Of a stretch of DNA of 52,575 nucleotides, positions 18,534-36,552 are shown piece after piece. Every line of letters starts with the position of its first letter. Positions within the stretch are counted from its first letter, which is position 1. Both the position numbers and the translations under genes were made by a program. Source of the DNA: Candidatus Aenigmarchaeota archaeon LH_S7 (GTDB lineage Archaea > Aenigmatarchaeota > Aenigmatarchaeia > QMZS01); assembly GCA_023659895.1 (NCBI GenBank), contig JAGXOL010000004.1, positions 1-52,575 of the forward strand, given 5' to 3'. The notes beneath the pieces are model-generated. The model was not told the DNA's origin. It did no database searches and worked only from the letters and a program-made list of their open reading frames with translations.

Positions 18534-18858
18534 TGATATTACTTTCGTCATTTGATAACAAGTATATAGGCTTAACTAATTGAAAGAAATATACCCTTTC
18601 GTTCTTTTTCTTCCTCTTTTCTGAATTCACACTCAGGAATATTCCCAACAATCTCTTTTGTCATATTTTTTTAAGTCTAATAAAGTAAAACAATATTAAG
18701 TAAAGATTTTAAGATACTTTCCACATAATATATATTTATATTAAAAATATATAATTTTTTTATCTTAACCTCAAACTGTTTTTTATACTCTTTCATATAT
18801 GCACCTTGTTTGCTATTTTTCCAAGGAGGTGGAAGTTCTAAAACAACGTTTGCTATTA

Positions 18859-18953
18859 GTCTTATCACCAACTCCTCAATGTTTCTATCTTTGGGTTTAA
18901 TCTCTTTATCAGCTTGCCCCTAAAATCACTTAAATTTTATTTCGGGATATAGC
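18859..18953 (+). repeat. Direct repeat, right copy (flanks defence island)
   Basis: gtcttatcaccaactcctcaatgtttctatct + ttgggtttaatctctttatc...gggatatagc; matches 12184-12294. Confidence 0.9.
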
Positions 18954-19967: not shown

Positions 19968-20305
19968 TATGAAAGATTTTGCATTTCAAACAACCAAGAA
20001 GGCTGCAAACTACCTTTAAAGAATTTTAGGAGAGATGAGACACTAACTTCTGAGAGGGGGATGGCAAAAGAAATCGTGACAAAATATGACAAGGAAAATG
20101 ATTCCTTCTTCGTGGAGCAAATCTCAAAAAACTATCCAAATCACAACATTCTAACAGAGGAAAATGGATTCATTGACAAGAAAAAAGGATTATACTTGGA
20201 TTATTGACCCTCTGGATGGGACAAGCAATTATGCAACAGCAAACCCTTTTTTTTCTCAGTTTCCCTTGCAGTAGCAAAGAACAATGAAATTATTTTGGGA
20301 ATTAT

Positions 20306-20626
20306 ACTTAACCAAAGGCAAGAAAACTCCTTATTTCAATAATGGAGATGAATTGCCTATATAAAAGTTTTTTTGTAAATATATATAAGGACATACAGGT
20401 CCTGTATTGTCTTCTGGGTATATCTTGGAAGACGGGGCTGCTGAACCTACAATAGTGAAATAAGGCGTCTGAAAAAGGTGACTCAGCCCTAAACTAAAGC
20501 GTGTTAGACCAAAACCTCTGCTATAGTAAGTTTTGTTAGCGACTTTAGAACCTCGTTAGCCTTCTGTATTCAAAACAGTGTTTTGGTTAAGGAAGCTCCT
20601 GAATTTATTCAGGGAGAGGAAGTCAC
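20306..20626 (+). mobile_element. Non-autonomous IS200/IS605 derivative (321 bp) with left end, omega-RNA-like scaffold and right end, but no ORF
   Basis: ccaaaggcaagaaaactcc (20312-20330) identical to 31361-31379; left-end hairpin ggcaa..ctcc..ggag..ttgcc; 31-bp match (1 mismatch) 20408-20438 vs 32445-32475; right-end hairpin ctcctgaat-tt-attcagggag ending GTCAC. Removal after TTAT restores in-frame GII-NAPF. Confidence 0.82.
20377..20389 (+). promoter_or_regulatory. Candidate TATA box upstream of the omega-RNA-like scaffold
   Basis: aaatatatataag lies ~20-30 nt upstream of the conserved scaffold hairpin at 20410. Confidence 0.35.
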
Positions 20627-21081
20627 AAACGCACCTTTCATTGCGGAAAAAGGAAAGGGAGCCTTCCTGAATGGAAAGAAAATACAAGTATCTGAAGTAA
20701 ATAAAATTGAGAAAAGTTATTTACTCAGCTGCCAGGGAGGAGAACGAGATAATAAAAGAATTGCGAAAATAAACTCTGTAATCTACCAATCTCAAAGGAC
20801 ATGAAAAAGCTTGGCTCTGGAGCAATAGAAGGAGCTTATGTTGCTTGCGGAAGAGCGGATGCTTTTATTTCTCCGCAGATTGCTTCTTGGGACATAGCTG
20901 CAACAGCACTAATCCTAAAAGAAGCTGGAGGAAAAATCACTGATTTTGAAGGTAATGATTGGACACCAAAACAAAGCAATGTGATTCTCTCAAATGGAAA
21001 AATTCACAACAATATTATTGAATTAGTAGGAAAAGCTTTGAAATCATAATTGTCCGAGAAAGTTATCGAAATTAATTAAGT

Positions 21082-21615
21082 TTAGGCAGGTTTCTCATAT
21101 ATGAAAAGTCCATCTTGGAATTTTCTCCTATCCTTTTTACTTAACTTAGTCATTCTCTCTAATTTTGCAGCTGTCTGCCCTGCAAGTTCTTTATCTATTC
21201 CAGAAACTGTTATTTCATCCTTTGAAGCTTTTACTTCAACATTCTCAGGAATCTGCCTCTTTATAATATCCTTCTGACCAAGAAAATTCTTGACTTGTAT
21301 TTCATTACCTTGTACCTCAATTGAAATAGGGAAATGAACGTAAACAATCTTTAGTTTGTACTTATAACCTTCCTGCACACCATTAAACAAGTTCAAAACA
21401 TGATTCTTCACAGTGTTCAAAAGAGCTTTCCCTTTCTTGCTATCCAAATTTATACTTATTTTCAATTGTTTATCCTTTTTCTCAAACTTCAAAATATTAG
21501 CAACCACTCTGTTATAGAAATCTCTCTCAACCTCTCCTTTTTCCCCTTTTGCTTTCACTTTGAGTCTATCAACTTCCACCTCAATGTTTTCAGGAATATT
21601 AATAGCAACTTCCAT
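21082..21615 (-). CDS. rpl6: 50S ribosomal protein uL6
   Basis: IPENIEV...KGEKGEVER, YKYKLKIVYVHFP, NFLGQK, VSGIDKELAGQTAA, DRRKFQDG. Confidence 0.96.
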   Translation of the reverse strand: MEVAINIPENIEVEVDRLKVKAKGEKGEVERDFYNRVVANILKFEKKDKQLKISINLDSKKGKALLNTVKNHVLNLFNGVQEGYKYKLKIVYVHFPISIEVQGNEIQVKNFLGQKDIIKRQIPENVEVKASKDEITVSGIDKELAGQTAAKLERMTKLSKKDRRKFQDGLFIYEKPA

Positions 21616-21645
21616 TAATTTACAGAGAAATAAATTTTTTATTCT

Positions 21646-22986
21646 CTATTTTGGTATCTCTTTAATAACTTCATCAACCAGATCTTTTATTTTCTCAAAT
21701 TCTTCCTTTTCAGATGATTCAGCACCTATAGATATCTTCGCTTCCGTGTTTGAAGGCCTGAACAAAGCCCAACCATTATTAAAATTAACTCTTACACCAT
21801 CCAAAGTTATTAAATCATAACTTTTCTCTTCAAATTTCTTCTTCAAACTCTCAATAAACTTGAACTTTTCTTCTTCTTTGATATAAACCCTATCAGAATA
21901 AGAATAATATTTAGGATATTTAGAGGTTAGTTCAGACAAATTTTTTCCTTCCTCTTTCATAATACTCAAAATCCTCATGCAAGCAATCAATACATCATCA
22001 GCGTAACTAGTTTCTTTAAAGAAATAGTGCCCTGAAACTTCCCCAGCAATCACAGCTCTTTCCTCCAAGCACTTATTTGCAATATATGTGTGCCCTACTT
22101 TCCATATTATTGGTGTCCCCCCATTTTCCTTTGTGACATCATCAACTAACTTAGAACACAAAACATCATGAATAACTTTCCCTTTCTCATTTTTTAACTT
22201 GTCTTCTATCAACAATGAAAAAATATGATTCGTATTAATTAAATTACCTTTTCCATCAACAATATTTAACCTGTCCCCATCTGAATCAAAACCAAAACCC
22301 AAATCCGCACCTTTTTCTTTCACTTCTTTTTTTAAATCAACAATAAATTCTTTATTCATAGGATCTGGTATGTGATTAGGAAAATTACCATTTGGCTCAC
22401 AATACAATTCAATCACTTCAGCACCCTTTTCTTTCAAAGCTTGGGAATATATTTTTCCTGCAGAACCATTTGTTGCATCCACAACAACTTTTGTTTCATT
22501 AAAATTAGATCCAAAAGATTTTATAAAATTAATATACTCTTTCTTAATATCTCTTTTATTTAATTTCCCTTTACCTTCACTAAACTTACCTTTTTTGATA
22601 GTTTCCTTAATCTTGTTTAAACCAGTTTCATAGCCGATTGGAATCCCTTTGAAATTACAAACCTTGAAACCATTAAACTCTTTTGTTAAATGAGAACCTG
22701 TAACCATTATTCCCATTTCATAACCCAATTTATAACAAGCAAAGTAAATTACAGGAGTAGGAACCATTCCTATATCAGTAACTTCAATACCTGATTCAAC
22801 TAAACCTTTAACTAAATTATCTTTCAAAGAAGGAGAACTCAATCTTGCATCCCAACCCACAACAATTTTCTTGTCAGGGTACAAGGTTCCAAATGCCTTA
22901 CCAAACAAGTAAGCAACATTTTCATCAATTTCTTGGGGATAATTCCCCCTAACATCATAAGATCGAAATATTTTTTCAAGTTCCAT
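21646..22986 (-). CDS. Phosphomannomutase/phosphoglucomutase
   Basis: IFRSYDVRG, GWDARLSS, phosphoserine loop TGSH, metal loop FDSDGDR, GEVSGH, DGVR, RPSNTE. Confidence 0.95.
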   Translation of the reverse strand: MELEKIFRSYDVRGNYPQEIDENVAYLFGKAFGTLYPDKKIVVGWDARLSSPSLKDNLVKGLVESGIEVTDIGMVPTPVIYFACYKLGYEMGIMVTGSHLTKEFNGFKVCNFKGIPIGYETGLNKIKETIKKGKFSEGKGKLNKRDIKKEYINFIKSFGSNFNETKVVVDATNGSAGKIYSQALKEKGAEVIELYCEPNGNFPNHIPDPMNKEFIVDLKKEVKEKGADLGFGFDSDGDRLNIVDGKGNLINTNHIFSLLIEDKLKNEKGKVIHDVLCSKLVDDVTKENGGTPIIWKVGHTYIANKCLEERAVIAGEVSGHYFFKETSYADDVLIACMRILSIMKEEGKNLSELTSKYPKYYSYSDRVYIKEEEKFKFIESLKKKFEEKSYDLITLDGVRVNFNNGWALFRPSNTEAKISIGAESSEKEEFEKIKDLVDEVIKEIPK

Positions 22987-23004
22987 AATTCTATAAAATT
23001 CTTT

Positions 23005-23211
23005 TTAACACTCAATTACATGTAATGGTTTATTCCCCTTTTCCTTAGGTCTATATCCGCAATCCCACATTTTTTCTGGCCAGTCTGGATTGTACCAAGG
23101 GAAATTATCAGAACCAACAGGACTTCTCCCATATTTTCTTTCCACATTTGAAGGATCTTCAATTTGTTTTATAACTTTGCCTTTGAAAAATATGTATATT
23201 TTGTAATTTAA
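23005..23211 (-). pseudogene. Orphan 3' gene fragment without a start codon (68 codons)
   Basis: Open stretch KIYIFFKGKVIKQIEDPSNVERKYGRSPVGSDNFPWYNPDWPEKMWDCGYRPKEKGNKPLHVIEC*; its 5' part would lie under the IS remnant. Confidence 0.45.
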
Positions 23212-23239
23212 TTAATTTAAATACAAGTATTACAGATAA

Positions 23240-23564
23240 AGTCCCAAAAAAGCTACCGATTGGCTTAGAATTAAGGGTATTAAAGTTCTCTGTATATATT
23301 TATAGAGTTCTTTCTCTATAGTGGCTGGAGAAAGGTTAAAACTTCAGAACACTACACCTGTAAACCGTTGGCAACAACTAAATAAGAGGTAAGGTGCTTA
23401 TACAATAAAAAGACCAACGAGGTTTAGGCTATATGTCTAAACTAGGGGTTGTTTTGGCACAGCCCGTAACTGAGGCAGAGTTCATAAAGAAGTCAGCCGA
23501 AAGGTTTAGGGGTTCAGAGTGCGATCTCAGAATCTCCTGACTTTAGTGAGGGGGAGAGTGTCAA
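23240..23564 (+). mobile_element. Decayed tnpB remnant retaining omega-RNA scaffold and IS right end
   Basis: Right end tcagaatctcctgacttta...gtgtcaa (ends 23564) matches 32514-32547; hairpin gtttaggc-TATAT-gtctaaac then gggg and gcccgtaactg parallel the intact element; faint TnpB-like translation KATDWLRIKGIKV. Left boundary approximate, no left end seen. Confidence 0.75.
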
Positions 23565-23884
23565 TTTTCACCCCTCCACCTTCTTTTTCTCCCAACAACC
23601 TTATAATCTCCACCTTCTATTCTTATTCCTTTTCCATTAACAATTGCATCTGAAATCTTCTTTCTCGCACTAACCAACAAACGATTCAATGTTGGTTGGG
23701 AAACCTCCATCTTTTTAGCAGTCTTTACCTGGTCTAACTCTTCATAATCCTTTAAGCGAATTGCCTCATACTCATCAACATTCAACAGAACTTCCTCTAG
23801 ACCAGATATTCTTGCTCCAGCTGGCTTGAAATAATTTGTTTTCGGCAAATTTAGGACTTTTCTGAGTCTTCTTGGCCTAGGCAT
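23561..23884 (-). CDS. DUF134 family HTH protein
   Basis: MPRPRRLRKV...YFKPAG...DEYEAIRLKDYEELDQ...MEVSQPT...ARKKISDAIVNGKGIRIEGG; GAGGT SD upstream. Confidence 0.92.
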   Translation of the reverse strand: MPRPRRLRKVLNLPKTNYFKPAGARISGLEEVLLNVDEYEAIRLKDYEELDQVKTAKKMEVSQPTLNRLLVSARKKISDAIVNGKGIRIEGGDYKVVGRKRRWRGEN

Positions 23885-23886
23885 TG

Positions 23887-24195
23887 TTATACCTCATTTA
23901 ATTCTTTTAAAACTTCCTCAACTTTTTTGTTTTCAACTTCTTTAACCTTAACTCCTCCTTGTTCAAGAACATCTTTCATGTTTCTTCCTACTCTACCACA
24001 AACCACAATTTCAACTCCTTCATTCTTTAACATCTCTGCTACTTTTATCCCTGCTCTCCCACCATGAACATAAGGGTTCTCAATTGCTTTTATCAACTTT
24101 CCGTCCTCAAAAATCAAATAGTAAGGAGATCTACCCCCCACTTCACTTACCTCTGATTTTTCATCTTTTCCCATCGCAGAAATTCCCACTCTCAT
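23887..24195 (-). CDS. NifB/NifX-family (FeMo-cofactor-binding-like) protein
   Basis: GRSPYYLIFE...IENPY..GGRAGIKVAEML...VVCGRVG pattern. Confidence 0.88.
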   Translation of the reverse strand: MRVGISAMGKDEKSEVSEVGGRSPYYLIFEDGKLIKAIENPYVHGGRAGIKVAEMLKNEGVEIVVCGRVGRNMKDVLEQGGVKVKEVENKKVEEVLKELNEV

Positions 24196-24699
24196 AATCT
24201 AATAATTTTTTCAATAATTAAACCTTGGATTATTGAAACAAAAACCATTACTAAAGTAAGAACAACAACGAACTTAACTCCGAAGTAAGTAATTATTATA
24301 GGAATCAATGGAATCTTTATTGCCCTGTTGTACAAAAAAACAGAAATGAAACCATACCTCACACCTTTTTCTTTCAGGTCTTTCAAGAGAGGATACCACA
24401 TATAAATAGAACCTGTTGACAATATTCCTCCTCCAATTGCTATTAACCAACCCTTAACACCTTTTTCTTTTCCCAAAATACTTGACTATTTTCTTTGAAG
24501 TTACAAAATAATTAATCAAGGTCATGAAACCCAGAACTAAGAATAAGATAGGAATAATCTTCCTCGCAATTCCCCAAGCAAACTCCAAGGTTGGATAAAA
24601 CATTGCTGGATAAACAAAAGAACCTGCAAAAAACAAAATTATCACTACTAAAAGAAATAAGCTTCCTCCAACCCTCTCTTCCAACTTTAATTCCATCAT
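24192..24699 (-). pseudogene. Permease (DUF318-like) split by a single +1 frameshift into track ORFs 24454-24699 and 24192-24476
   Basis: Junction TAT TTT G GGA AAA GAA; removing one base gives ...KY(F/L)GKEKGVKGWLIAI...GSIYMWYPLL, the typical full permease. Confidence 0.7.
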
Positions 24700-25118
24700 A
24701 TCACTCCTAAAATCATGACAGTAAGAACTGCCACAATGATTGAAAATATAAAAGAGAGCCCATTCCTGAGCAATGCGAATTTCTTACCAAGCAAAAGACC
24801 TTCTGCGGGTAACTGAACAATACCAACAGTAACCCAGGCAACAAGAAAAGCGGTGACCGCAATTAACTTAACACCCTGATTTAAGAATTCCCCACCAAGA
24901 ACATAACTGTTTATTGGATTTCCAGCTAGAATACTACCTATAGCACTACCAATAAAGGAATCAACTAGATAATGATTTCCAAAAACTGAGGAATAAAAAG
25001 AACTTGGAATTAAGATAGAGGCCATACTGATTAATAATATGATCCCTATCAATGTTGGGAGGGTCTTGTACATCCCTCTGGCTGCTCTTTTCACAGCCTG
25101 TATTGCTCTCTGTCCCAT
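24696..25118 (-). CDS. Permease (DUF318-like small membrane protein)
   Basis: GSAIGSILAGNPINSYVLGGEFL...AWVTVGIVQLPAE...FALLRN motif; hydrophobic. Confidence 0.85.
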   Translation of the reverse strand: MGQRAIQAVKRAARGMYKTLPTLIGIILLISMASILIPSSFYSSVFGNHYLVDSFIGSAIGSILAGNPINSYVLGGEFLNQGVKLIAVTAFLVAWVTVGIVQLPAEGLLLGKKFALLRNGLSFIFSIIVAVLTVMILGVI

Positions 25119-25120
25119 GA

Positions 25121-25309
25121 TTATCTAATTCTTCTATTCTTCCTTCTCCAACCTCTTCTTTGAGCTAAACCAGCTCCGCAAGGACCTAAGCCCCTACCCA
25201 ATCTAGTTTTAGCTGTGCTATTGTTCTCGTTGGAGTCATTACAAAGACCCAATCCTCTTCCTGTTTTTGGACCTTGTCCCAAAGGACCTGTTTTATCTTT
25301 TCCAGGCAT
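25121..25309 (-). CDS. DUF5320 family protein
   Basis: MPGKDKTGPLGQGPKTGRGLGLC N-terminus, Gly/Arg-rich tail; GAGGTGA SD. Confidence 0.88.
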   Translation of the reverse strand: MPGKDKTGPLGQGPKTGRGLGLCNDSNENNSTAKTRLGRGLGPCGAGLAQRRGWRRKNRRIR

Positions 25310-25381
25310 AATACATCACCTCATGAATATATTACGAATATATATTCATAATTAATACACGAAAAATTTAAATACTTTAAA

Positions 25382-26359
25382 TCACTTCTTTTTAGCTGCC
25401 TTAGCCCTATAAAACCTCCTTTTAACAGTCCTGAAATACTTGTAGAAATGATGTGTCTTGGAAAGTTCAGCTCTTGTAATATCTGATGAAAGCAAGAACC
25501 CTGCAAATAATAATAATGCACCTCCATACAACAAACTAATTGAAGGAATCTCCCCCAAAATTATAAAACCGAAAAAAGCTGCTATTAAAGGAGAAACTAC
25601 AATGTCCACAAGAGAATAAATATTAGCATTTATTTTTTGTAAAGCAAAGGTGATGAAAAGGTACACCACACCAGTAGAGAAAACACCTAAACCAAGAACC
25701 CAGACTATTGCTGGTATCTGAACTGTTATTGCTAACAAAGGAGCTAATGAATAAGCATTGAAAGCAAACCACTCACCAAAACCAAAAATAAATGGCATTG
25801 GACTCAAGAAAACTGCTGCAAAAACTAAAAACCAAAAAACAATACCAGTTGTCTCAATCTTATCTTCATATCTCATGTAAGCAATCAAAACAGCATAAAT
25901 CAAACCATCTAACAAGGCAACCGCATTTCCAAAAGCATAACTCCCTGAAAAAGGTTTTGCTATGAAAACACCAAGGAAAGCAATCAAGAAAACAATTAGG
26001 TGCAACTTTGTTGTTTTTTCCTTCAAGAAAACAATTGAGAAAATGAAAACGAAGAAAGAATAAGTTGTCCATAATATTACTGCATTAGCAATAGGAACAA
26101 TACTGATTGCAAAATTAAAAGTTACCAATTGCGAAGCTATGAGACCTCCAATTATCAGAGTAGGTTTTATCTCCTTTCTTGAAATGTTCAGAAAACTCCT
26201 GTCAATCAAAGGAATTGTTATACCTAAGAAAAGTAATGCGAACAAAACACTATAAAAAGTGAGGGAAAATATGTTGATTGCATTCCCGGTTAGTTTAATG
26301 AAAATACCTATGGTGGCTTCTGCAACAGTTACAACTGTGAGTGGAAAATATTTGTTCAT
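25382..26359 (-). CDS. DMT/EamA family transporter
   Basis: About 10 TM helices in two EamA halves (FLKEK, FGFIILGE); start at 26359 supported by GGAG SD. Confidence 0.88.
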   Translation of the reverse strand: MNKYFPLTVVTVAEATIGIFIKLTGNAINIFSLTFYSVLFALLFLGITIPLIDRSFLNISRKEIKPTLIIGGLIASQLVTFNFAISIVPIANAVILWTTYSFFVFIFSIVFLKEKTTKLHLIVFLIAFLGVFIAKPFSGSYAFGNAVALLDGLIYAVLIAYMRYEDKIETTGIVFWFLVFAAVFLSPMPFIFGFGEWFAFNAYSLAPLLAITVQIPAIVWVLGLGVFSTGVVYLFITFALQKINANIYSLVDIVVSPLIAAFFGFIILGEIPSISLLYGGALLLFAGFLLSSDITRAELSKTHHFYKYFRTVKRRFYRAKAAKKK

Positions 26360-26369
26360 AATTACTCCT

Positions 26370-26624
26370 TTAAAATACAATTATTTTATTCTTTCTCCAT
26401 CCCATAGAATCAGTTATTATTAAAACATTCATTAATCTATTAACATTATAATCTAAATCATAATTATAAAAATCTGTATGAATATTTCCCAAATTAATTT
26501 CTAAATTCTCATCAAGTTGTGTCAAATTTTTAGAAAATTGTTTTGTTTCTGGAGATTGAACACAACCACTCAAAAACCAAACTTACTACTGTAAGCAGAA
26601 TAAATATACTTATAAATATTTTAT
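26370..26624 (-). pseudogene. Decayed lipoprotein-like gene
   Basis: GAGGT SD, then AT(G)-KIFISIFILLTVVSLVF, then a frameshift into LSGCVQ (lipobox-like) of track ORF 26370-26573. Confidence 0.4.
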
Positions 26625-26704
26625 GTTTTGACCTCTGCTGCCGAACTTTTATTAAATGCTTGCTTTCCGTTAGATTTATAAGTTATTTCCAATCTTAATT
26701 AATA

Positions 26705-27586
26705 ATGACAATGAAATTTTTAATAGTTGGAGATTTGCATGGAAATAAGCCAAACATTTACTTTGAAGGCTTTGATGCAATTATAGCTCCAGGGGATTTT
26801 TGTTCAGATGCTCTAAGAAAGTATATGTTTCAAGCATTAAGAGAAAATTTACAAAATCCTGATTCTAAAGTAGAATGGTATGATTTAGTAGGAAAAAGAG
26901 AAGCAAGAAAAATGATTAAAAAATCTCTTTCAGATGGGAGAAAAATATTAGAACAACTTAATTCTTTTGATGTTCCAGTTTATATTGTTCCAGGAAATTG
27001 GGATTGGACAAAAGAAAGAAATTCAGATTGGGATTTCCTAAAACAAGACCATTATAGAACCCTTACAAAAGGACTTTCCAATATTATTGATGTGCAGCAT
27101 AGAATTGTGGATATTGGAAATTATCAAATAATAGGACATGGAATTTCTTCAGGTCCAGAATATCCACAATATAAAGAAGATTTGGAAAGGCTAAAGCCAA
27201 AAGAATTGGCAAAAATAAAAAAAGAATATGAAAGAGATTCAAAGAAAGTTGCTTCTTTTTTTGGAAAAGCATCAAAGCCAGTTATTTTTTTATCCCATAA
27301 TGTGCCATTTAATACACCGCTTGATGAAATCACAGATAAAGATTCTCCAAGATATGGCTATCATTACGGTTCATTAATTGCCAAAGAAATGATTGACAAA
27401 TACCACCCATGTATTTGCATTGGTGGGCACATGCATGAACATTTTACAAAATCTAAGGTTGGAAAAACAACGGCAATTAATGCTGGATTTGGTTCTTATG
27501 TAAATGTTTGGATGGAGTTATTGGAAGATAAAATAAAAAGATTGGAATTTCATCAAGAAGGAGGCACTAACTCATTTCTTCTGTGA
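26705..27586 (+). CDS. Calcineurin-like metallophosphoesterase
   Basis: GDLHG, PGDF, PGNWD, SHNVP, GGHMHE, INAG motifs; start may be 26711. Confidence 0.9.
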   Translation: MTMKFLIVGDLHGNKPNIYFEGFDAIIAPGDFCSDALRKYMFQALRENLQNPDSKVEWYDLVGKREARKMIKKSLSDGRKILEQLNSFDVPVYIVPGNWDWTKERNSDWDFLKQDHYRTLTKGLSNIIDVQHRIVDIGNYQIIGHGISSGPEYPQYKEDLERLKPKELAKIKKEYERDSKKVASFFGKASKPVIFLSHNVPFNTPLDEITDKDSPRYGYHYGSLIAKEMIDKYHPCICIGGHMHEHFTKSKVGKTTAINAGFGSYVNVWMELLEDKIKRLEFHQEGGTNSFLL

Positions 27587-27603
27587 GGCGGACTCGCAAT
27601 TGA

Positions 27604-27696
27604 GCATAATACATACGATTAAGAGAAGTCTGAGTAGAGCAAGGATTTAGATGTATCGAGGTGCAACCGAGCGAAACCGTTAAATCGCTGTTATAT
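27604..27696 (-). other. attC-like imperfect palindrome (integron cassette recombination site-like)
   Basis: Minus strand reads ATATAAC-AG-CGATTTAA ... TTAATCG ... ATTATGC: paired end boxes and inner boxes with one unpaired base; GC-richer than surroundings. Confidence 0.4.
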
Positions 27697-27810
27697 TCCC
27701 GGAGGGCTGAAATTTAGTGCAACATTCCGAAGGAAAATTTTTGAGTTTTGAAATAAGCAAAAACCTCCTATTTCTTTTTCATCCATTGCCCCTCTTATAT
27801 CCTTATTCAT
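27691..27810 (-). CDS. Possible 39-aa ORF ending inside the attC-like end box
   Basis: MNKDIRGAMDEKEIGGFCLFQNSKIFLRNVALNFSPPGI*; TT-ATG start; stop is the TAA of ATATAAC. Coding status unproven. Confidence 0.25.
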   Translation of the reverse strand: MNKDIRGAMDEKEIGGFCLFQNSKIFLRNVALNFSPPGI

Positions 27811-27833
27811 AATTTAATTAATTAAGAAATATT

Positions 27834-28475
27834 ATGACACTTAATTCCCTTGTACAACTCTCCCCAACAAAACTCAATCTTCTTCAGGAGTGTCCGCGGT
27901 GTTTTTGGCTTGATGTTGTGAAGAAAATTAGGAGACCGCAGGGTCCAATGTCCTCAATCCCAATAAAAATGGATTCTATAATCAAGAAATACTTTGACAA
28001 GTACAGGGAAAGGAATGAGCTCCCACCAATAATAAAGGAAAATGTTTCAGGGAGGTTACCGAAAAACATGCCGAAAACTCTTTACCACAGGGAAAACTCC
28101 AGCATAAACCTGATGGGAAGGCCTGATGAGTACCTTGAAGTTGATGGAAAGTTCATTGTACCTTTTGACCACAAGACAAAGAGCAAGCCACCTGAGAACG
28201 TGCATCCAGCATATCAATTACAATTGGATATTTACTCCTACTTGCTGAAAAAGAATGGATACAACACAACAAACCTTGGTTACCTTGCTTTCTATTACCC
28301 TTGTGATTGTGATTTGCATGATGGATTGGATATTCACTGCAAGGTCTTGAAAGTTCCAACAGATTTTACCCACGTTCAAAGATTAATCAAGAAAGCTGAA
28401 GATATTTTGAATGGGAAAATCCCAGAGAAGGGAACAGGTTGTCCTTTCTGTGAGTGGTTGGATAAGTTGAAATAA
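27834..28475 (+). CDS. PD-(D/E)xK nuclease, solo Cas4/RecB-like
   Basis: LSPTKL..CPRCFW, GRPD, FDHKTK, YQLQLDIY, GCPFC; four Cys in a 2+2 arrangement. Confidence 0.88.
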   Translation: MTLNSLVQLSPTKLNLLQECPRCFWLDVVKKIRRPQGPMSSIPIKMDSIIKKYFDKYRERNELPPIIKENVSGRLPKNMPKTLYHRENSSINLMGRPDEYLEVDGKFIVPFDHKTKSKPPENVHPAYQLQLDIYSYLLKKNGYNTTNLGYLAFYYPCDCDLHDGLDIHCKVLKVPTDFTHVQRLIKKAEDILNGKIPEKGTGCPFCEWLDKLK

Positions 28476-28476
28476 T

Positions 28477-28696
28477 TTATAATGTGTCAGTGTAGACACC
28501 ATCACATACAACTTCAGTTATAATCATGTCTTTGAAATCAGAGTATCTTTTACAGAATTCTCCAAGCAATTCAACAATATCCTTATCAATCTTATTTGAT
28601 AAATTTTATCAACTTCTGGACCTCTAAATACCTTGGAAAGTCATTTTCCAGGAAATTATATACTCCTTCATTAACTCCATTCAGATTATTTTTCAT
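28477..28696 (-). pseudogene. Small gene with one +1 frameshift
   Basis: MKNNLNGVNEGVYNFLENDFPRYLEVQKLIK then in a shifted frame LSNKIDKDIVELLGEFCKRYSDFKDMIITEVVCDGVYTDTL*; 220 bp = 73 codons + 1. Confidence 0.45.
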
Positions 28697-28726
28697 AATT
28701 GAAAAGTGTAAGTTATTTATGTTTAA

Positions 28727-28972
28727 TCAATTTTCCATGTCAGCGAAAAATTCTTTTGATTCATTATAAGCTTTTTCCCTTTGTTTCAACTTCCTCAAAC
28801 AATTGATGCAGAAGAAACCCTCAAGAGTGTAGTTAACAGTTTTCCTTAGCTCCATCCCATTCTTCATAACAACTTGGTCAGGTTCCTCAAAAATAAAAAT
28901 TTCATGATGCAGTTTAGGTTTACCTTTGTAATTACCTTTTTTACCACACACGCAACATTTACTTAAACTCAT
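28727..28972 (-). CDS. Small hypothetical zinc-finger protein
   Basis: CCVCG...FFCINC, two CxxC pairs. Confidence 0.65.
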   Translation of the reverse strand: MSLSKCCVCGKKGNYKGKPKLHHEIFIFEEPDQVVMKNGMELRKTVNYTLEGFFCINCLRKLKQREKAYNESKEFFADMEN

Positions 28973-29060
28973 GTTAGGGCCACAATTATTATTTACACAG
29001 AATTTTTATATATGTAAATGGATGCAAAGCTATGAAGACACTTAAATACCACCCAAAGTT

Positions 29061-31334
29061 TTAAAAACCCTCCAAACTCTTTTGCTCACTATACAAATCC
29101 TTCTTGTTATAACCCAAAACTGATAGAATTCTCAACGCTGCAGGAATTACCTGGTTGTTAACATAGTAATCCTCATCATAACTCTGCGCATCCTCATACC
29201 ACCTTGCCCTGTCTGAAATACTTTTCCCATTCCTCGTGACAATGTATTGTATTAAGCTACCCCTTGAAACTTCCACACCTCTTCTCTCTAAATCACGTGC
29301 AACTCTTATATGAGGTCCTATCTGTTCATAATCCTCAATATTTTTTGTTAACTGTCTCCTGATAACAAGTTTTTCCATGTCAATCTCCCCTTTCTTAACT
29401 TTTTTCACAACATCTCTTACGTGCTCAACAGCTTTTTTTTCCTTCCCTTTCAAGATGTTTTCAAGAACTTTTTCCTGAGTTTCCTTTGCAAGATCACTCC
29501 AGTCCCCACGGATATACTCAAACCCTTTCACAAGAATATTATCTTTATCATCAACCAATGCATATCTCTTCTTTGCACCTTTTCCCTCAGTACCAACAAA
29601 AATTCCACTCTTGTAAAACCCTTCATACTCAAGCTCCATTATTCCTGGCAACTTTTTATTAATTTTTTCAAGGAACTTTTTCACATCCCTCTCTCCACAA
29701 ATCATCAATGAATCAGTGTCCCCATATACAACCTCAAAACCATCCTTCTCAGCTTTCTCAATAGTTTCCTTAACATATTTTCTTCCAAGAGCAGTTATAG
29801 ATTCAGCACATTTCAAGCAGTACCAGCGGGCAGCAAAGAAACCCAGATAACCATAAGTGGAATTTGCAAGCAGTTTCAAAGCTTTCTCATCAACACCTTT
29901 CCCCTGCTTTTTCTTAATTTCAATTCTTTTTTTAATCAAATCATCAACAATCTCTACGATGAATCCCTTCTCCTTCTTAAATCTATGCTCCTTACCATCA
30001 ATATTTACCTTGAATTTTCCTTTTGGGTCCAAGGTATCAGGTGAGATGTTGTGCGAGACTAAAATGGAAGGGTATAGGGATTTGAAATCCAAAACATGAA
30101 TCTTTTCGTAAATTCCAGGTTTTGGTGGATGCACGTAAGCACCAATGTAACTTTGCTTTCTCCTTTCCTCAAGTTCATTATGACTAGGACGGTTCTTGAT
30201 GAAAATGTTCTTTCTTACAGATTCCCTGATTAAATAATTCTCCACTAGTTGGCTGTAACCACTCCTTGTACAATCAAACAAGTCAAGTCCAATCAGATTT
30301 GAGAACCTGTATTCTAGAGGAAGAATCTCCTGCCCAAGCAAATAAGTTATCCTGCAGTCTTGCAAATTGTACTTGAAGATTTTATCAATTTTCTTAGTTT
30401 CATTTGAATCCCAGATATCCTTGCTTTCTTGTATTTCAATGTCATCTTTTCCCTCACCAAGAAAGTACCTTGCAACCTCATCCAATTTCAAGCTCCTTGT
30501 TCTCACTTCCGCGGACAAGTGCTTTGCAAGAATGTTAAACAAGTCAATGTGAATGCAATTCTTGAAGTTTGCTCCTCTCCTGCTTTTCAAGATTGGATGT
30601 TCAAGACCGAGTTCTTCAGACCTGGTTTTAAGATATTCCATGTCAAAATTGTCCCCATTATAGGAGACCACAGCATCATATTCATCAATCAACTCAAAGA
30701 ATTTCCTTAGCATTTCCTTCTCATTTTTCAAGACAATAACATTATCAAGACTTGATTTCTTCCATGTCAAGACCCTATGTTTGTTGTAGCAATAAAGTCC
30801 AATACAAATAATCTTGTTCTCTTTTACATCGAAAAATGGTTTGTAAAGCTCAATATCAAAGGATGCAATCTTTGGCTCGTAAAGACCTTCTTTTTTAACA
30901 AGCTTCTTCCCTTCAATCTTGTAACCATTCAACAACTTGATTTGGTTATCAATCAAATACCTTTTAGCGAATGGGATATCATACTCCCTCTTGTTTTTGA
31001 TATTTTTCATCTCCCTTACTGGATCTTTCATTACATTTACATCCCTTGGCTGTTTGCAATAGATTTTCAATGCCTTTACCTTTTTATTCAAATCAATTTT
31101 TTCAACAATCTCAACTCTAGTAGGCTTTAGTTTCTCCCCATTATAATCCATTTCAAATCCTTCAATTTCCTTCTTCATCTTCTCAATTTTTTTCTGTTCA
31201 GGAATTGCGTAAAAATAAGGCTCAAAACCAGGATCTTCAAAAACTTTTTTCTCCCTTTTGTCAGTCCTTCCAAAAACCCTGACCACAGGATTTCCGTCTC
31301 TTATTTCATAATCAGCTGTTAAAGGGTAGAACAT
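29061..31334 (-). CDS. polB: Family B DNA polymerase
   Basis: Exo I FDIE, Exo II YNGDNFD, Exo III YNLQD, DFKSLYPS, KLLANSTYG, YGDTDS, C-terminal PIP box QKSLEGF. True start 31334; the track extension runs into the IS left end. Confidence 0.96.
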   Translation of the reverse strand: MFYPLTADYEIRDGNPVVRVFGRTDKREKKVFEDPGFEPYFYAIPEQKKIEKMKKEIEGFEMDYNGEKLKPTRVEIVEKIDLNKKVKALKIYCKQPRDVNVMKDPVREMKNIKNKREYDIPFAKRYLIDNQIKLLNGYKIEGKKLVKKEGLYEPKIASFDIELYKPFFDVKENKIICIGLYCYNKHRVLTWKKSSLDNVIVLKNEKEMLRKFFELIDEYDAVVSYNGDNFDMEYLKTRSEELGLEHPILKSRRGANFKNCIHIDLFNILAKHLSAEVRTRSLKLDEVARYFLGEGKDDIEIQESKDIWDSNETKKIDKIFKYNLQDCRITYLLGQEILPLEYRFSNLIGLDLFDCTRSGYSQLVENYLIRESVRKNIFIKNRPSHNELEERRKQSYIGAYVHPPKPGIYEKIHVLDFKSLYPSILVSHNISPDTLDPKGKFKVNIDGKEHRFKKEKGFIVEIVDDLIKKRIEIKKKQGKGVDEKALKLLANSTYGYLGFFAARWYCLKCAESITALGRKYVKETIEKAEKDGFEVVYGDTDSLMICGERDVKKFLEKINKKLPGIMELEYEGFYKSGIFVGTEGKGAKKRYALVDDKDNILVKGFEYIRGDWSDLAKETQEKVLENILKGKEKKAVEHVRDVVKKVKKGEIDMEKLVIRRQLTKNIEDYEQIGPHIRVARDLERRGVEVSRGSLIQYIVTRNGKSISDRARWYEDAQSYDEDYYVNNQVIPAALRILSVLGYNKKDLYSEQKSLEGF

Positions 31335-31357
31335 AACTAAATTTACCCTAATTTTAT

Positions 31358-32547
31358 AAACCAAAGGCAAGAAAACTCCCAAATCGTGTAGAGGATTTGC
31401 CCTTAAAATAGTTTAAAATATAATTAAATATGGTCTGTGTTAGAAAAACAATTAAATGCAAGATAATAAAGCCAACAGAATTAAAGTTAAAACATTTAAA
31501 CAAAGAAAATAACAATTTACAAGAACTGCTACAATTAGAAAAATTTGGATTAGATTTACTGCCAATTTACCGATCTCTTAAAAAGAAGGTATACTCTGCA
31601 AATATACAACAAGCCTTAAGATTTTATAAAAAGATTAAACTAAATAAAGAATATCCAATATCCTTTAGAAAAGATTTATTAGAGATTAGAAAAACAAATA
31701 ACAAACTATCAGAGTATTGGGTTAAAATACCTACTAAACAAAGAAAAGGTGGTTTAAAGTTAGCAATTAAATCACAACCTTTTCTCTTTGAAGATTATGA
31801 GATTTGTGAATCCAAACTGTTTAAAAAGAAAAATAATTGGTTTTTAAATCTAACAGTTCAAAAAGAAGTTGAACTGAATAATACTTATGACTCCGTTCTT
31901 AGTCTTGATTTGGGACAGAAATATATGGGCGTATCGGTGATGCATCCATCTGCTTTAATGACTCCTAAATTCTACGGCAAAGAAGTCAGAGGAATAAGAA
32001 GAAAATACGACTATATTAGGAAGCAACTCAGTAAGAAAAAGGTATTGAAAGAAATAAAAAACTTTGGACAGAAGGAGCAAAGAAAAGTAACTGATTGTCT
32101 CCATAATATTTCTAATAGGATTATAGAGTTTGCACAGACCAATAACTCTGTAATTGTGTTGGGGAATTTGAAAGGGCTTAGAAGCTCAGTGAAAGGTAAA
32201 GGTAGAAAGTTCAATAGGATTGTTTCAAATATGCCTTATTATCAATTAACACAAATGCTCGAATACAAAGCAAATTGGAATGGAATAAGAGTAGTAAAAG
32301 TAAATGAAAGGGGAACAAGTCATACTTGTTGTAAATGTAGTTCTAAAGGTTTAAGACCAAAGCAAGGAGTTTTCAATTGTTCTGTTTGTGGACTAAAAGA
32401 CTTTAATGCAGATATAAACGGTGCTACTAATATAGGTAATAAAGTGTCTTCTGGGTATATCTTGGAAGATGGGGCAACATTGACTTTGCCCGAAACTGGT
32501 GCAATATGACATCAGAATCTCCTGACTTTAATCGTGGAGGGTGTCAA
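31358..32547 (+). mobile_element. IS200/IS605-family solo-tnpB element (IS1341-like), no tnpA
   Basis: Preceded by TTAT; left end ccaaaggcaagaaaactcc with hairpin caaatc/gatttg; right end cagaatctcctgactttaatcgtggagggtgtcaa; left boundary uncertain by ~3 bp. Confidence 0.88.
31430..32509 (+). CDS. tnpB: RNA-guided nuclease TnpB with rearranged RuvC-II site
   Basis: RuvC-I LSLDLG; RuvC-II VIVLGNL (G instead of E) with E in VNERGTS 48 aa later; Zn finger CCKC...CSVC; RuvC-III NADINGATNI. Confidence 0.9.
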   Translation: MVCVRKTIKCKIIKPTELKLKHLNKENNNLQELLQLEKFGLDLLPIYRSLKKKVYSANIQQALRFYKKIKLNKEYPISFRKDLLEIRKTNNKLSEYWVKIPTKQRKGGLKLAIKSQPFLFEDYEICESKLFKKKNNWFLNLTVQKEVELNNTYDSVLSLDLGQKYMGVSVMHPSALMTPKFYGKEVRGIRRKYDYIRKQLSKKKVLKEIKNFGQKEQRKVTDCLHNISNRIIEFAQTNNSVIVLGNLKGLRSSVKGKGRKFNRIVSNMPYYQLTQMLEYKANWNGIRVVKVNERGTSHTCCKCSSKGLRPKQGVFNCSVCGLKDFNADINGATNIGNKVSSGYILEDGATLTLPETGAI

Positions 32548-32567
32548 CTATTCAATGAAGTAATTAC
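32445..32567 (+). ncRNA. Predicted TnpB omega-RNA (reRNA): scaffold to 32547 plus ~20-nt guide ctattcaatgaagtaattac
   Basis: Overlaps tnpB 3' end and IS right end as established for TnpB loci; conserved blocks shared with 20408-20438 and 23422-23564. Confidence 0.65.
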
Positions 32568-35500
32568 CAAAATAAGGATTGTTTGGCCATAAACATTTCA
32601 GTTTTTCATCTGCGATTTTGTTTTGACCATACCAAGATACCATATTACCTATTTCACAACCAACTACTGAACAACCTGCTAGACCAAGTCCTGCAGTGAA
32701 AACTCCGCAGATTCCGGTTATTCCAAGTTCAGCAATTATTGAACCTGCCGCTATGCCTTTCTCTTTGAGTCCTTCATGATTAGGTGGAGGAGTGTAACAA
32801 AATCCTTCTGTTTCTGGCTTAGAAACATATCTTACTTTTAAGCAATCGGTAGTAGTCTTTGTATCTAATTTGGTCCAATAAGGTTTACCATATTCAGTTT
32901 CATTTGAAAGTTCACCATTTTCATTTGCATCTGAACTTAAATCAACTTTCGCAGGCAAAGTTTGGATTGAGCCCTCTTTAATAGTTTTTATAACCCCTTC
33001 CTTAATATGATTTACATAATCGTCGTCTTCGTCTTCCGGATATGCCTTGTTCAAACCTTCTGTTATGTTTTCTCTAGGATGAGAGCATGCAGATTCTGAT
33101 TTAACTTTTAAGTCAATTTCTGATGTCAAATCTCCCTCATTAGAATCTATTTCATCATTACCAATTCTCCATTCTGTGCAGCACCATTCTTCAGTTTCTA
33201 TCTCCGTGGAACCTTTAAATCCAAATTGTTTTTGTTTACCTTCACCTATCTTTTCCCAATTAGAACACTTTAACCATTGCTCGCCCCTAACACAATCGGA
33301 AGTGTAGAAAGGTACTGAGGGCACAGAAGAATCTGCGCATGTAAATTTTGAAGTATCTTCAGAAATGTATCTAGTGCAATTCAAATTTTGCGCTTTAAAA
33401 AAGGCATCACATTCACTTGAGAATTCTGTTCTGAACATTTTATACTCAGGCCTATTCTTTATATAGTTAGTGAAACTAAGATTAATCTGGTATTTTACAG
33501 TTGTAGAATCTATATTAATAGGTTTTTTATCTATAATATTAATACTCTCTGAACCCAAATTTTCTTCTTCCTTAATCAAATCTATATTTTCACCATAATC
33601 GCGATATAAGGTTATATTACATTCAGCTTCATCATCATTTTCAACATTCTTTACCTCACACTCAAAAATATAGGTGTTTATTGAGGTCTCATCAATGAAA
33701 GGATCCTTGTCCAATACACAATTACATTCTGTTTTAGTTATATTCATCTTTCCACCACAAGGGGATGCACTGTAAAATCTGGTGTAAGCAGAAGAACTCA
33801 ACAATTTATCAATAAACCTTACCATATTAGGAATCTCAACAACTTTTGGAGTAGGAGGAGTGTATTCAATTATATCTTTGCTATCTCCTGAGTTCTTTTT
33901 CCCACCAAAACAATATATCTTACCTTCTAAAGACTCTACACAAGATAAGCTCTTTATAGTAAAAGGTAGTTCTCCAATCACATCAGAGTTTTTTTCTGTA
34001 GAATTATCTCTCGGATCAAACTCAACAATATCATCTAAATAATCATCACTACTACTTTCCCCACCAAAACAATAGATTTTTTTGTTCAAAGAGCTTTCAG
34101 CACAGGAAAGATGCCCTATTTTCTTTTCCAAAGATTCTACTGTATTAATCTCTCCTGGGTTATTCGGGTCAAACTCAACAATATCATCTAAATAATCATC
34201 ATTACTATTTTTCCCACCAAAACAATAAATATTGTTATTCAAAGAGCTTTCCACACAGGAGGAATAAGCTGTTTTTGCAGGAAGTGTTGCAGACATACAG
34301 GAAGTTGTATTTGCTGAAGGATTAAACCTATCAATATCATCTGAATAATCTGTACTATTTTTTCCACCAAAACAATAAATGAGCCCATTTTTGGAGCTTT
34401 CCACGCAAGAAAGCCCTTCTCTTGGAGATATCTTTAATGATTCTCCTAAAGGTCCTGGTATAGTATTTATCTCATCTTTTTTAACATCATATTTTAATAT
34501 TTCACTCTGGTAAGTACTTGTGTTATCCACCCCACCAAAACAATAAATATTGTTATTCAAAGAGCTTTCTACACAAGAAAGTCCTTTTATAGCAGGAGTT
34601 AAGTTTGCGACCAATTCATCATTTACATAATAGTAAGTGGGATCATAACTAAAAATTTGGTCAAAGTAAGTATCTGCAATATATTCTGTACTTTTTATTC
34701 CACCAAAACAGTATATCTTGTTTTGACTAGTTCCAGTACAAGAGAGCTCACGCCTTCCTTGTAAATTAAGTATAGTAGAGCTCTCTGGATAAAGTTTTTT
34801 AGGAAGCTTAGAATCTTTCACAACAACTTTTGGTTCATTTCTGTTAAACGAAACACCTGCTTTGGAACTTTCCATAGCATACTTATTTAGTTCTATGTAA
34901 TCGATCCCTGCTTGCTTACATTCCTCCAAAGGATAAATTCCTATTGAGGGATTTGCCTGCGACTTCAAACATAAAGAGTGGTCCATACAAGGAGAGAATT
35001 TCATTTGAGATATTTGCATTCTATCAAGTGCATTACTAAAAACAAAACTTGAGCCGTACCAAGTACCCCACCTACCAACAACATGCTTTTTATGTGCGTG
35101 CTTTAAAACTTTCTTTGATGCAAACATAGCCAAGTGAGGAAGGGAAGAAATTTTTGTATTATCCATTTGACTATGATAAATAGCTTGAGTCCACCTCAAA
35201 GGCTTTGAATCATCAAATAATTTCTCTGGTTCTAATTTATCCCCTATCCTATGTATCCTGGTGTAAGATTCTAGAGCGTTTATATAATCATCATTTTCAA
35301 TGTCCTCTGCTGTCCAGCCTGCCTTTTTCAATATTCTTTTGACCTCCATTGTTTCACCTGGATATATAGTATTATCTCCATTTTTTAATCTTTGAGTTAT
35401 ATCAAACACTATATCTTTGTCTTTTTTATTTATAAGACCTTGATCAAAACCTGTATGAGCATAATTTTCAAGGCCTTTTCTTGCCTCCTTGGCTGCTTTA

Positions 35501-36552
35501 TAATACTTTTCCCCACCTATTCCTAAATCATTCAATTTACTAATCCTCTCTGCTTTAGTTTTATCAGATTTTGACAAGTATTTAATATTTTTCATAAACT
35601 TTTTTGCCTCTCCATGAGTCATCCTGCCATCCATGAAATCATCTATTTTATTATAAAAATTTTTTGAGTGCATTTCAATCTTAGAAAATTTACTAATATC
35701 CTCTACATCAATAGCCTTTACTGCCGAATAACTCTTGGCATATTCATTGAAGTGAGCTTTAGATTTAGTAGTGCACTTATCCATAATCCATCTCCAAAGA
35801 TTATTAGCAGAGGATTTGACTTTGGTGGAGATTTTTGGCCAAAGATCTTTTAAGAACAATTTTCTACCAATCTTTCTGGATTTTTGACCAGCCAAAAAAA
35901 TTTTTGTGACTGTAGCTCCTGCTTTTTTAGCTGCTCTAGATTTTCTGATTGCATCTTCAAAATTTCTTCCTGCTAATTTACCAGCTTTTTTAACAGTTTT
36001 ACCCACAACATAACTTCCTCCTCCAGCACCAGCTTTTCCTACCCATTTCAAAGCCCCAGCAAGCCTATGAAATGGAACCAAGCAGGTAGCAACTTCAGCA
36101 CTTCTCCAAACCATTGAGGTGGTTCTCATTGCAGCAACTTCACTCCATCCTGTCCAACCTGTATCCTCCCCTTCAGGAAATTTTTCATAATAAATCGTGT
36201 ACCAAGGATCCCCATAAGATTCCAAAGCAGTCATGTATCTCATGGCCTTGCCCACAGCTTCCACATCACCTGTAATAAAGCTATGAAGAAAACTAATAGG
36301 ATTTGCTTCAGCACCTCTTGAACTTATTTTTTGGGGTAAGTTTATTTCAACAGTTCTTGTAGCTCCTTGAGGGGAAGCGCAAACATAGTTCATCGCGGTT
36401 TGCAAGTTTTTTGTACTTTTTTCCGCTTCCTGTTCATATTGAAAGGAGGCCCACATCCCAAGGAAGTGGGATGTTATCATTAAAGTAAATACTACTACTA
36501 CTAACCCAATAAATATTTGCAGAGAGTGGGAAAAAAACCCTTTTGATTTCAT
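32548..36552 (-). CDS. 1334-aa secreted/membrane-anchored protein with six Cys-rich kelch blades
   Basis: MKSKG|FF then hydrophobic helix (class III signal-like); six SC.ES....IYCFGG blades; DNA repeats 34213-34251/34531-34569 and 34016-34048/34169-34201; Gly-rich hydrophobic C-terminal segment. Confidence 0.85.
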   Translation of the reverse strand: MKSKGFFSHSLQIFIGLVVVVFTLMITSHFLGMWASFQYEQEAEKSTKNLQTAMNYVCASPQGATRTVEINLPQKISSRGAEANPISFLHSFITGDVEAVGKAMRYMTALESYGDPWYTIYYEKFPEGEDTGWTGWSEVAAMRTTSMVWRSAEVATCLVPFHRLAGALKWVGKAGAGGGSYVVGKTVKKAGKLAGRNFEDAIRKSRAAKKAGATVTKIFLAGQKSRKIGRKLFLKDLWPKISTKVKSSANNLWRWIMDKCTTKSKAHFNEYAKSYSAVKAIDVEDISKFSKIEMHSKNFYNKIDDFMDGRMTHGEAKKFMKNIKYLSKSDKTKAERISKLNDLGIGGEKYYKAAKEARKGLENYAHTGFDQGLINKKDKDIVFDITQRLKNGDNTIYPGETMEVKRILKKAGWTAEDIENDDYINALESYTRIHRIGDKLEPEKLFDDSKPLRWTQAIYHSQMDNTKISSLPHLAMFASKKVLKHAHKKHVVGRWGTWYGSSFVFSNALDRMQISQMKFSPCMDHSLCLKSQANPSIGIYPLEECKQAGIDYIELNKYAMESSKAGVSFNRNEPKVVVKDSKLPKKLYPESSTILNLQGRRELSCTGTSQNKIYCFGGIKSTEYIADTYFDQIFSYDPTYYYVNDELVANLTPAIKGLSCVESSLNNNIYCFGGVDNTSTYQSEILKYDVKKDEINTIPGPLGESLKISPREGLSCVESSKNGLIYCFGGKNSTDYSDDIDRFNPSANTTSCMSATLPAKTAYSSCVESSLNNNIYCFGGKNSNDDYLDDIVEFDPNNPGEINTVESLEKKIGHLSCAESSLNKKIYCFGGESSSDDYLDDIVEFDPRDNSTEKNSDVIGELPFTIKSLSCVESLEGKIYCFGGKKNSGDSKDIIEYTPPTPKVVEIPNMVRFIDKLLSSSAYTRFYSASPCGGKMNITKTECNCVLDKDPFIDETSINTYIFECEVKNVENDDEAECNITLYRDYGENIDLIKEEENLGSESINIIDKKPINIDSTTVKYQINLSFTNYIKNRPEYKMFRTEFSSECDAFFKAQNLNCTRYISEDTSKFTCADSSVPSVPFYTSDCVRGEQWLKCSNWEKIGEGKQKQFGFKGSTEIETEEWCCTEWRIGNDEIDSNEGDLTSEIDLKVKSESACSHPRENITEGLNKAYPEDEDDDYVNHIKEGVIKTIKEGSIQTLPAKVDLSSDANENGELSNETEYGKPYWTKLDTKTTTDCLKVRYVSKPETEGFCYTPPPNHEGLKEKGIAAGSIIAELGITGICGVFTAGLGLAGCSVVGCEIGNMVSWYGQNKIADEKLKCLWPNNPYFGNYFIE

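Follow-up and report, generated by a model that had tools for sequence, protein, structure and literature searches.

IS608-like elements with and without tnpB that share a covarying candidate omega-RNA scaffold in a Candidatus Aenigmarchaeota genome

Three Related Elements in the Window

The analyzed stretch of 52,575 nt (the window) corresponds to C44:1-52575, the contig JAGXOL010000004.1 of Candidatus Aenigmarchaeota archaeon LH_S7, whose genome assembly (GCA_023659895.1; here G000) comprises 740 kb in 56 contigs and is 85% complete. On the plus strand it contains three elements (copies A, B, and C, each representing a family of the same letter) that end in a common candidate omega-RNA scaffold, and copy A carries a tnpB gene. 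These three loci are probably the right ends of IS608-like elements of the IS200/IS605 group, with A as a tnpB-only insertion sequence and B and C as deletion derivatives resembling palindrome-associated transposable elements (PATEs) or the miniature transposable elements with inverted repeats known as MITEs, and their RNAs would load TnpB for homing and retention of the elements.

Copy A is an IS1341-like, tnpB-only insertion sequence with a size of 1190 bp (31358..32547). It follows the transposon-adjacent motif (TAM) TTAT (31354..31357), which is found in front of seven left ends of family A, distributed over six contigs that include C52 and C8. Its tnpB gene (31430..32509) codes for 359 amino acids and matches Pfam PF07282 (E = 1e-20, 74 bits), in agreement with a TnpB fold that includes the zinc-ribbon/TNB domain. 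The omega-RNA scaffold of 104 nt (32444..32547), supported by a covariance model (R1) and by folding, covers the last 66 nt of tnpB. Further full family-A copies, two on contig C11 and one on C52, are 87-90% identical, and additional fragments are located at contig ends.

Copy B (20306..20626, 321 bp) belongs to a gene-less, PATE/MITE-like family and is inserted in an inositol-monophosphatase (IMPase) gene (20034..21049). The TTAT in front of it (20302..20305), which serves as TAM and left cleavage site, is found before the left end in 12 of the 14 B copies collected from three genomes. The two exceptions are a copy whose left end is of family C and follows TTAC, and a copy with a truncated left end. 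Excision of 20306-20626 joins ...GGAATTAT to AAACGCACC... and yields one collinear match to PF00459 (Inositol_P), in which residues 1-177 of the protein align across the junction with profile positions 85-268 (E = 1e-43). The insertion of copy B is therefore seamless, and its target was not duplicated. Besides the interruption by the element, the IMPase frame is shifted in homopolymer runs close to 20180 and 20246 and at about 20800. In sequencing run X1, an independent contig has an additional AA after 20180 and an additional T after 20246, which restores the frame, and at least the shifts near these two positions thus look like assembly errors or strain variants rather than decay. The IMPase site is also occupied in X1, which may be the source sample, and no joint skipping the element, as expected for an empty allele, was found in the DNA runs examined, whose contig sets are tiny.

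Copy C (23234..23564, 331 bp) is a gene-less element between a phosphoglucomutase gene and a DUF134 gene. Its TAM and left cleavage site is TTAC (23230..23233), which was found before every family-C left end. It shares 87% identity over 361 aligned nt with the gene-less copy C55:27704-27348, and its left end also matches C3:4266-4420; gene-less family-C copies are thus located on contigs C44, C55, and C3.

An original prediction, made from the sequence of the window, had described three omega-RNA loci of one insertion sequence family, two of which had lost tnpB. The loss of tnpB is evident, since both B and C are complete gene-less elements with an intact covarying scaffold. They are, however, whole elements including a left end and not isolated RNA loci, and instead of one family at least two, and really three, subfamilies are present.

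The Shared Scaffold and its Covariation

The scaffolds of A, B (20407..20626, 220 nt), and C (23419..23564, 146 nt), the latter two also supported by R1 and folding, consist of the same parts in the same order: stem 1, whose loop is TATAT, then GGGG and stem 2, a linker, stem 3, the tetranucleotide GAAT or GAAG, the right-end hairpin, and a tail. The same architecture had originally been proposed for 32445, 20408, and 23422, together with a GAAA tetraloop insert in the 23.4-kb copy and the right-end hairpin, and all of these features were recovered. Stem 1 (32447-32469 in A, 20410-20432 in B, 23422-23442 in C) is identical in A and B (TCTTCTGGG/CTTGGAAGA, 9 bp including three G-U pairs), whereas that of C differs and yet is complementary (GTTTAGGC/GTCTAAAC, of the gtttaggc/gtctaaa type). 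The earlier description of the stems as completely different but complementary thus applies to C and does not hold for A versus B. Stem 2 is GGGCAA/TTGCCC in A and GGGYTG/CARCCC in B and C and is followed by an AAAC-type linker, (A/G)AAC(T/C). Stem 3 bears family-specific inserts, among them the GAAA-capped AGCC-GAAA-GGYT of C (23495-23506), and in B stem 1 is followed by an enlarged stem 2 loop, stem 3, and an extra hairpin. The right-end hairpin reads CTCC-T-GAC-TTTA-GTC-GT-GGAG or a variant of it in every family; including the tetranucleotide, it occupies 32515-32539 in A (GAAT), 20592-20616 in B (GAAG), and 23530-23556 in C (GAAT). The tails end with TCAA in A (GGTGTCAA) and C (AGTGTCAA) and with ...TCAC in B.

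Element copies were located by blastn and by R1, which was built from 17 copies and scores 110 bits for A, 131.9 bits for B, and 137 bits for C. The genome-wide covariance search suggested by the original prediction retrieved 28 matches in G000 at a looser threshold (E ≤ 1); 17 and 14 matches (E ≤ 0.001) were obtained in G012 and G013, respectively, two relatives of G000. One weak match (about 30 bits) was found in each of three other related genomes and none in the remaining 35. A search of the three loci against Rfam 15 returned no known RNA family, neither at the gathering threshold nor at E ≤ 5.

Covariation was assessed on an alignment of 17 sequences, all of them genome copies, by applying five measures to 28 pairs and comparing them with 500 shuffles. 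Pairing is found in 94% of the cells, and 14 of the 28 pairs are altered on both sides, with compensatory changes in four helices of the scaffold. For four of the five measures none of the 500 shuffles matched the observed value, and 6/500 did so for the count of further pair types; sliding the partners by 1-3 columns reduced pairing to 38-57% of the cells. The covariation announced by the original prediction was thus confirmed beyond the level of the shuffles. Kinship among the copies inflates these counts, but base-pair changes nevertheless occur between families and in all helices. Judged from this alignment, the scaffold structure is under constraint at the RNA level.

Transposition Signals

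In IS608 of Helicobacter pylori, DNA guides of 4 nt beside the subterminal hairpins read the cleavage sites (PMC3201880). The ends of the elements described here are IS608-like, with subterminal imperfect palindromes on both sides, no terminal inverted repeats, and a left hairpin of the form CTCC/CTAC...GGAG/GTAG. All families comply with the IS608 rules. In family C, TTAC is located 19 nt before the foot of the left hairpin and is combined with the guide AAAG; the right hairpin has GAAT in front of it, and TCAA forms the end of the element. Families A and B use TTAT with the guide AAAA on the left side; in copy B this guide (20323-20326) fits the target TTAT when the pairing rule of IS608 (PMC3201880) is applied, and it directly precedes the left subterminal hairpin CTCC...GGAG (20327-20347). 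On the right side, TCAA is combined with GAAT in A and C, and TCAC with GAAG in B, in a further type D (see below), and in a type on contig C15 of G013 (the G013:C15 type). In a chimeric element (G000:C11:14176-14495), the left end is that of family C and is preceded by TTAC, and the body and the right end with TCAC are those of family B; its insertion target accords with the C-type left end. Cleavage sites and guides thus change in a matched fashion, which confirms the element boundaries. Features shared with IS608 (PMC3201880) are TTAC at a distance of 19 nt from the foot of the left hairpin together with AAAG, TCAA with a 4-nt guide 5' of the hairpin, and the lack of target duplication. In contrast, IS608 has a tnpA gene, whereas the elements described here include families with TTAT/AAAA (A and B) or TCAC/GAAG (B and D) and have their right cleavage site at a distance of 8-10 nt from the foot of the hairpin.

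No match to PF01797, the family of the Y1 transposase TnpA, was obtained in the 85%-complete G000. PF01797 was detected in G013, within a tnpA+tnpB element whose left end is that of family C. It was also detected in G012, where a solo tnpA of the IS200 type is unrelated and has other ends.

tnpB Genes and the Predicted Nuclease

A tblastn search of the G000 contigs with the window TnpB as query revealed at least five intact tnpB genes in total, of which at least four belong to family A (85-100% identical) and one to family C (46%). The earlier count of only one tnpB is correct within the window but not for the genome. The start of contig C8 contains a 63%-identical, C-terminal tnpB piece that is cut off and defines type D, and several further tnpB fragments are located at contig ends. 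The same contig harbors, downstream of a Fic-like gene (HPFIDGNGR motif), an orphan D-type scaffold (G000:C8:6588-6688, minus strand) with a decayed stem 1 and without a recognizable left end. The closest tnpB fragments in public databases belong to metagenome-assembled genomes of Candidatus Aenigmarchaeota.

The intact family-C tnpB (G000:C56:17168-18232) is accompanied by a scaffold (C56:18174-18317) that has a gtttaggc-tatat-gtctaaa stem 1 and 90.6% (about 91%) identity over the last 149 nt of copy C. Since this tnpB carries the scaffold type of copy C, family C has its own nuclease. The original prediction had named stem differences that mark subfamilies with their own TnpBs as evidence against trans-acting guides, and this is the situation encountered for copy C.

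Based on position and covariation, the omega RNA overlaps the 3' end of tnpB and the right end of the element, with the guide outside the element. The best solved relatives of the TnpB of copy A are TnpB/Cas12f-like chains (PDB sequence matches, E = 1e-17 to 1e-12), and two RuvC residues, the D of LDLG and the D of NADING, are present. The canonical RuvC-II Glu is aligned with Gly in all TnpB types described here, within V(L/V/I)G(N/D)L, and an alternative Glu just ahead of (G/Y)TS is kept in the A, C, D, and G013:C15 types, in the context NE(R/S)(G/Y)TS or PE(A/G)YTS; in copy A it is part of NERGTS. TnpB clades with a rearranged RuvC-II site, which have Gly in place of Glu and possess an alternative Glu, have been described and are predicted to be active (PMC10691335). 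Sharing both the Gly at the Glu position and the Glu before (G/Y)TS, the TnpBs described here fit these clades, and nuclease activity is predicted on this basis.

Family B and its Nuclease Partner

Family B is represented by about ten copies at unrelated sites in G000 and by at least seven more in G012 and G013 together. Alignment of the B and A left ends identified three features at 20377..20402: a TATA-like box, the relic of a tnpB start, and a short hairpin in the leader (GGAC..GTCC); the relic reads ATGG in sister copies and ATAAGG in the window copy. Family B contains the A/T-rich region that precedes tnpB in family A. From this position we infer that the former tnpB promoter is now fused to the RNA module, which would place the transcription start directly ahead of the scaffold. 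The modules of the B scaffold differ in their affinities: the 5' module is closest to A (31/35 positions), and the middle (19/25) and 3' (28/36) modules are slightly closer to D. The transposition signals follow a similar pattern, with TTAT shared with A, and TCAC and GAAG shared with D.

No tnpB linked to family B was found in G000, G012, or G013. In the absence of a cognate tnpB in three genomes, B would need a nuclease in trans. Alternatively, B could have its own tnpB, located in the 15% of the genome that the assembly lacks or collapsed where contigs end. This cognate nuclease would then replace A or D as partner, and the B copies would be non-autonomous copies of an ordinary kind. In line with this, many contigs of G000 end inside element repeats, the D-type tnpB on C8, whose type has TCAC and GAAG in common with B, is cut by the contig start, and the three assemblies are merely 70-85% complete. 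However, all 14 full B copies in the three genomes have a size of about 325 bp and contain no coding remnant, and none of the tblastn fragments is associated with a scaffold of the B type. A B-specific tnpB is thus considered unlikely.

High copy numbers of the elements were observed in only 3 of 41 related genomes, and these three span two genera. The families are thus restricted to a few lineages in two genera, which probably live together, and this distribution suggests recent horizontal spread among co-occurring Aenigmarchaeota.

Constraint on the Orphan Scaffolds and Expression

Copies B and C could also be inert relics without a functional RNA, whose right end is kept as a DNA substrate of TnpA or simply through youth. 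The right-end hairpin is a TnpA DNA signal anyway, and within family B no pair is changed on both sides; divergence within this family is too low to be informative, and the conservation could reflect youth. Several observations contradict this explanation. Stems 1-3 are not part of the TnpA hairpin, and they show covariation from family to family, and the three G-U pairs of stem 1 suit an RNA of the plus strand only, as the opposite strand would give A-C mismatches. Among the B copies, mean pairwise identity is 96.7% in the scaffold versus 84% in the left end, which agrees with the earlier proposal that the structure was kept after loss of the reading frame, the covarying scaffold being intact. 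Moreover, G000 contains terminal-only family-C elements of about 50 nt (G000:C11:43957-44010, C55:11981-11930, and C44:53362-53415, the last just outside the window), in which the first ~30 nt of the left end are joined, across two similar hairpins, to the final ~20 nt of the right end. Such elements, also known from another archaeon (PMC3119063), show that TnpA substrates can be far shorter and do not need the long scaffold. The retention of a scaffold in B and C that TnpA does not need argues for a role as RNA. We regard inert relics as quite improbable, although the direct RNA evidence against them is weak.

This evidence stems from a metatranscriptome of the same study, in which a contig of 192 nt with a depth of 19 and 95% identity maps to 20395-20585, within and just ahead of the B scaffold. 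No signal was detected in this metatranscriptome on the B left end or on the A and C scaffolds, and over 16 kb (20700-36700) nothing was found but a tnpB-like contig of 153 nt. These data hint at an expressed and abundant B RNA.

Guides and Their Targets

The guide of each copy is the DNA that flanks it, and this flank differs in every B copy. The guide segment of A (32548..32567) starts with the complement of the stop codon of a gene for a 1334-aa repeat protein, that of B (20627..20646) is IMPase coding DNA directly after the right end, and that of C (23565..23584) is antisense to the last DUF134 codons. The starts of the three guides in the original prediction coincide exactly with the element boundaries established here. 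A search for TAM-adjacent guide matches in the genome and in co-occurring viruses had been proposed along with them. A scan for second genomic targets with 16-nt guides and up to 3 mismatches gave only chance-level matches, none of them behind a TAM, and the three window guides had no exact match in the viral_contigs dataset. A single exact 16-mer was found: the guide of a family-A copy on contig C6 (flank at G000:C6:11803) recurs at C11:46052, an unrelated locus without a TAM, where the match is preceded by CACAAG and diverges right after the 16 nt. This recurrence is unlikely by chance and has no visible consequence.

The idea that the orphan RNAs constitute a repertoire, as in the original prediction, with which one TnpB would be steered to further targets in the genome or in viruses and would serve regulation or defense, is in keeping with the statement that standalone omega RNAs allow targeting of additional sites (PMC10691335). 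It is nevertheless very improbable, because the guides are merely insertion flanks, all near genomic matches lack a TAM, the window guides have no exact viral_contigs match, the TnpBs are encoded by multi-copy mobile elements and are not domesticated, and copy C has its own nuclease family. Instead, the guides would be expected to target the donor site once it is empty, in accordance with the homing model (PMC10055086).

Neighboring Genes and Repeats

The family-C insertion hit the stop codon of the DUF134 gene (23558-23569): the old stop was the complement of TTAC (GTAA), the new stop is a TGA within the element tail, and the last residue changed from K to N. The left junction of the family-A element (TTTTAT|AAACC; 31335-31365) reads GGTTTATAAAA on the minus strand and is located ~20-27 nt upstream of the likely ATG of a family-B DNA polymerase gene (open reading frame 29061-31382). 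The element sits in the TATA box of this polB gene and may re-create that box. TTATA always results when TTAT is followed by a left end whose first base is A, and families A and B may therefore favor archaeal promoters.

The reading frame of the 1334-aa protein (32548-36552, minus strand) contains six periodic repeats of 150-168 nt (33874-34722). A direct repeat of ~130 nt with 80-91% identity is present at 12161-12294 and 18836-18953, 6.66 kb apart, and a perfect tandem duplication of 44 nt is located at the end of the window (52476-52563).

Proposed Mechanism

In the scenario that we consider likely for these IS608-like elements, a Y1 TnpA would insert them 3' of TTAT (A and B) or TTAC (C) and would cleave after TCAA or TCAC. 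The internal deletions that gave rise to B and C removed essentially the tnpB frame alone, leaving the left end, the presumed promoter region, and the omega-RNA module in place. The RNA of each copy would run on into the DNA past the right end. The RNA of copy C would load the C-type TnpB, and that of B would load an A- or D-type TnpB in trans. After excision of an element, the RNA-TnpB complex would cut the empty, TAM-adjacent site, and recombination would restore the element, which amounts to homing and retention.

Several points weigh against this scenario. As no Y1 TnpA is present in the G000 assembly, current mobility in this organism is unproven, and the window copy of family C has an altered left hairpin and may no longer move. 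The predicted nuclease activity leans on a published model, the canonical RuvC-II Glu being Gly in all of these TnpBs. Judging from sequence similarity, the nuclease partner of B is ambiguous, with an A-like 5' module, a D-like 3' module, and B copies in G013, which has no assembled A-type tnpB. Finally, the RNA evidence consists of a single contig, which is unstranded and derives from a multi-copy element, and DNA carry-over could explain it.

Relation to Known Systems

Both standalone, trans-acting omega RNAs and PATE-type gene-less derivatives have already been published (PMC10691335, PMC10055086). According to the summary of Altae-Tran et al. (2021) in PMC10691335, standalone omega RNAs without an effector are reported to work in trans with compatible effectors. 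These loci resemble those described here in being mobilized without effector or transposase, with effector-bearing copies in the same genome and an intact scaffold. The present case differs in that the host is a DPANN archaeon and that the B scaffold is double the length of the one in its nearest relative with a tnpB. Omega RNAs are frequently encoded by PATEs (Meers et al., 2023; PMC10055086), and the PATE-like IS200/IS605 elements of Geobacillus stearothermophilus also have both ends, no genes, and often an omega RNA that needs the TnpB of another element, with several families sharing one TnpA (PMC10055086). In that organism, however, an active TnpA was identified in the same genome, whereas none is assembled here. 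The closest archaeal parallels are the PATEs of Haloquadratum walsbyi (PMC3119063), gene-less IS605 derivatives in homogeneous multi-copy families. They include 52-bp terminal-only forms, likewise ~50 bp in size, from deletion between two hairpins, and among the PATEs (HqIRS71 included) one keeps the C-terminal tnpB region, and insertions occurred despite the lack of an intact tnpA. Unlike in the present case, the host is a haloarchaeon and not a member of the DPANN, and the study (PMC3119063) predates omega RNAs and contains no RNA structure analysis. The mobility of the elements in G000 without an assembled TnpA is thus a puzzle that was already noted for Haloquadratum.

The elements described here add a clean DPANN example to this known class. 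The compact scaffold of 104 nt belongs to a TnpB with a rearranged active site and is ready for biochemical testing. Three or four IS608-like subfamilies reside in the same genome, and their RNA helices, TAM and DNA guide, and right cleavage site and guide all covary. A tentative further possibility is that family B represents a guide-RNA-only lineage in at least two genera of Aenigmarchaeota, which has neither a nuclease nor a transposase gene and in which a promoter is fused to an enlarged 220-nt scaffold of mosaic A/D origin. Such a lineage might be a hyperparasite that competes for the TnpB of tnpB-bearing elements and would retain itself even inside a housekeeping gene.

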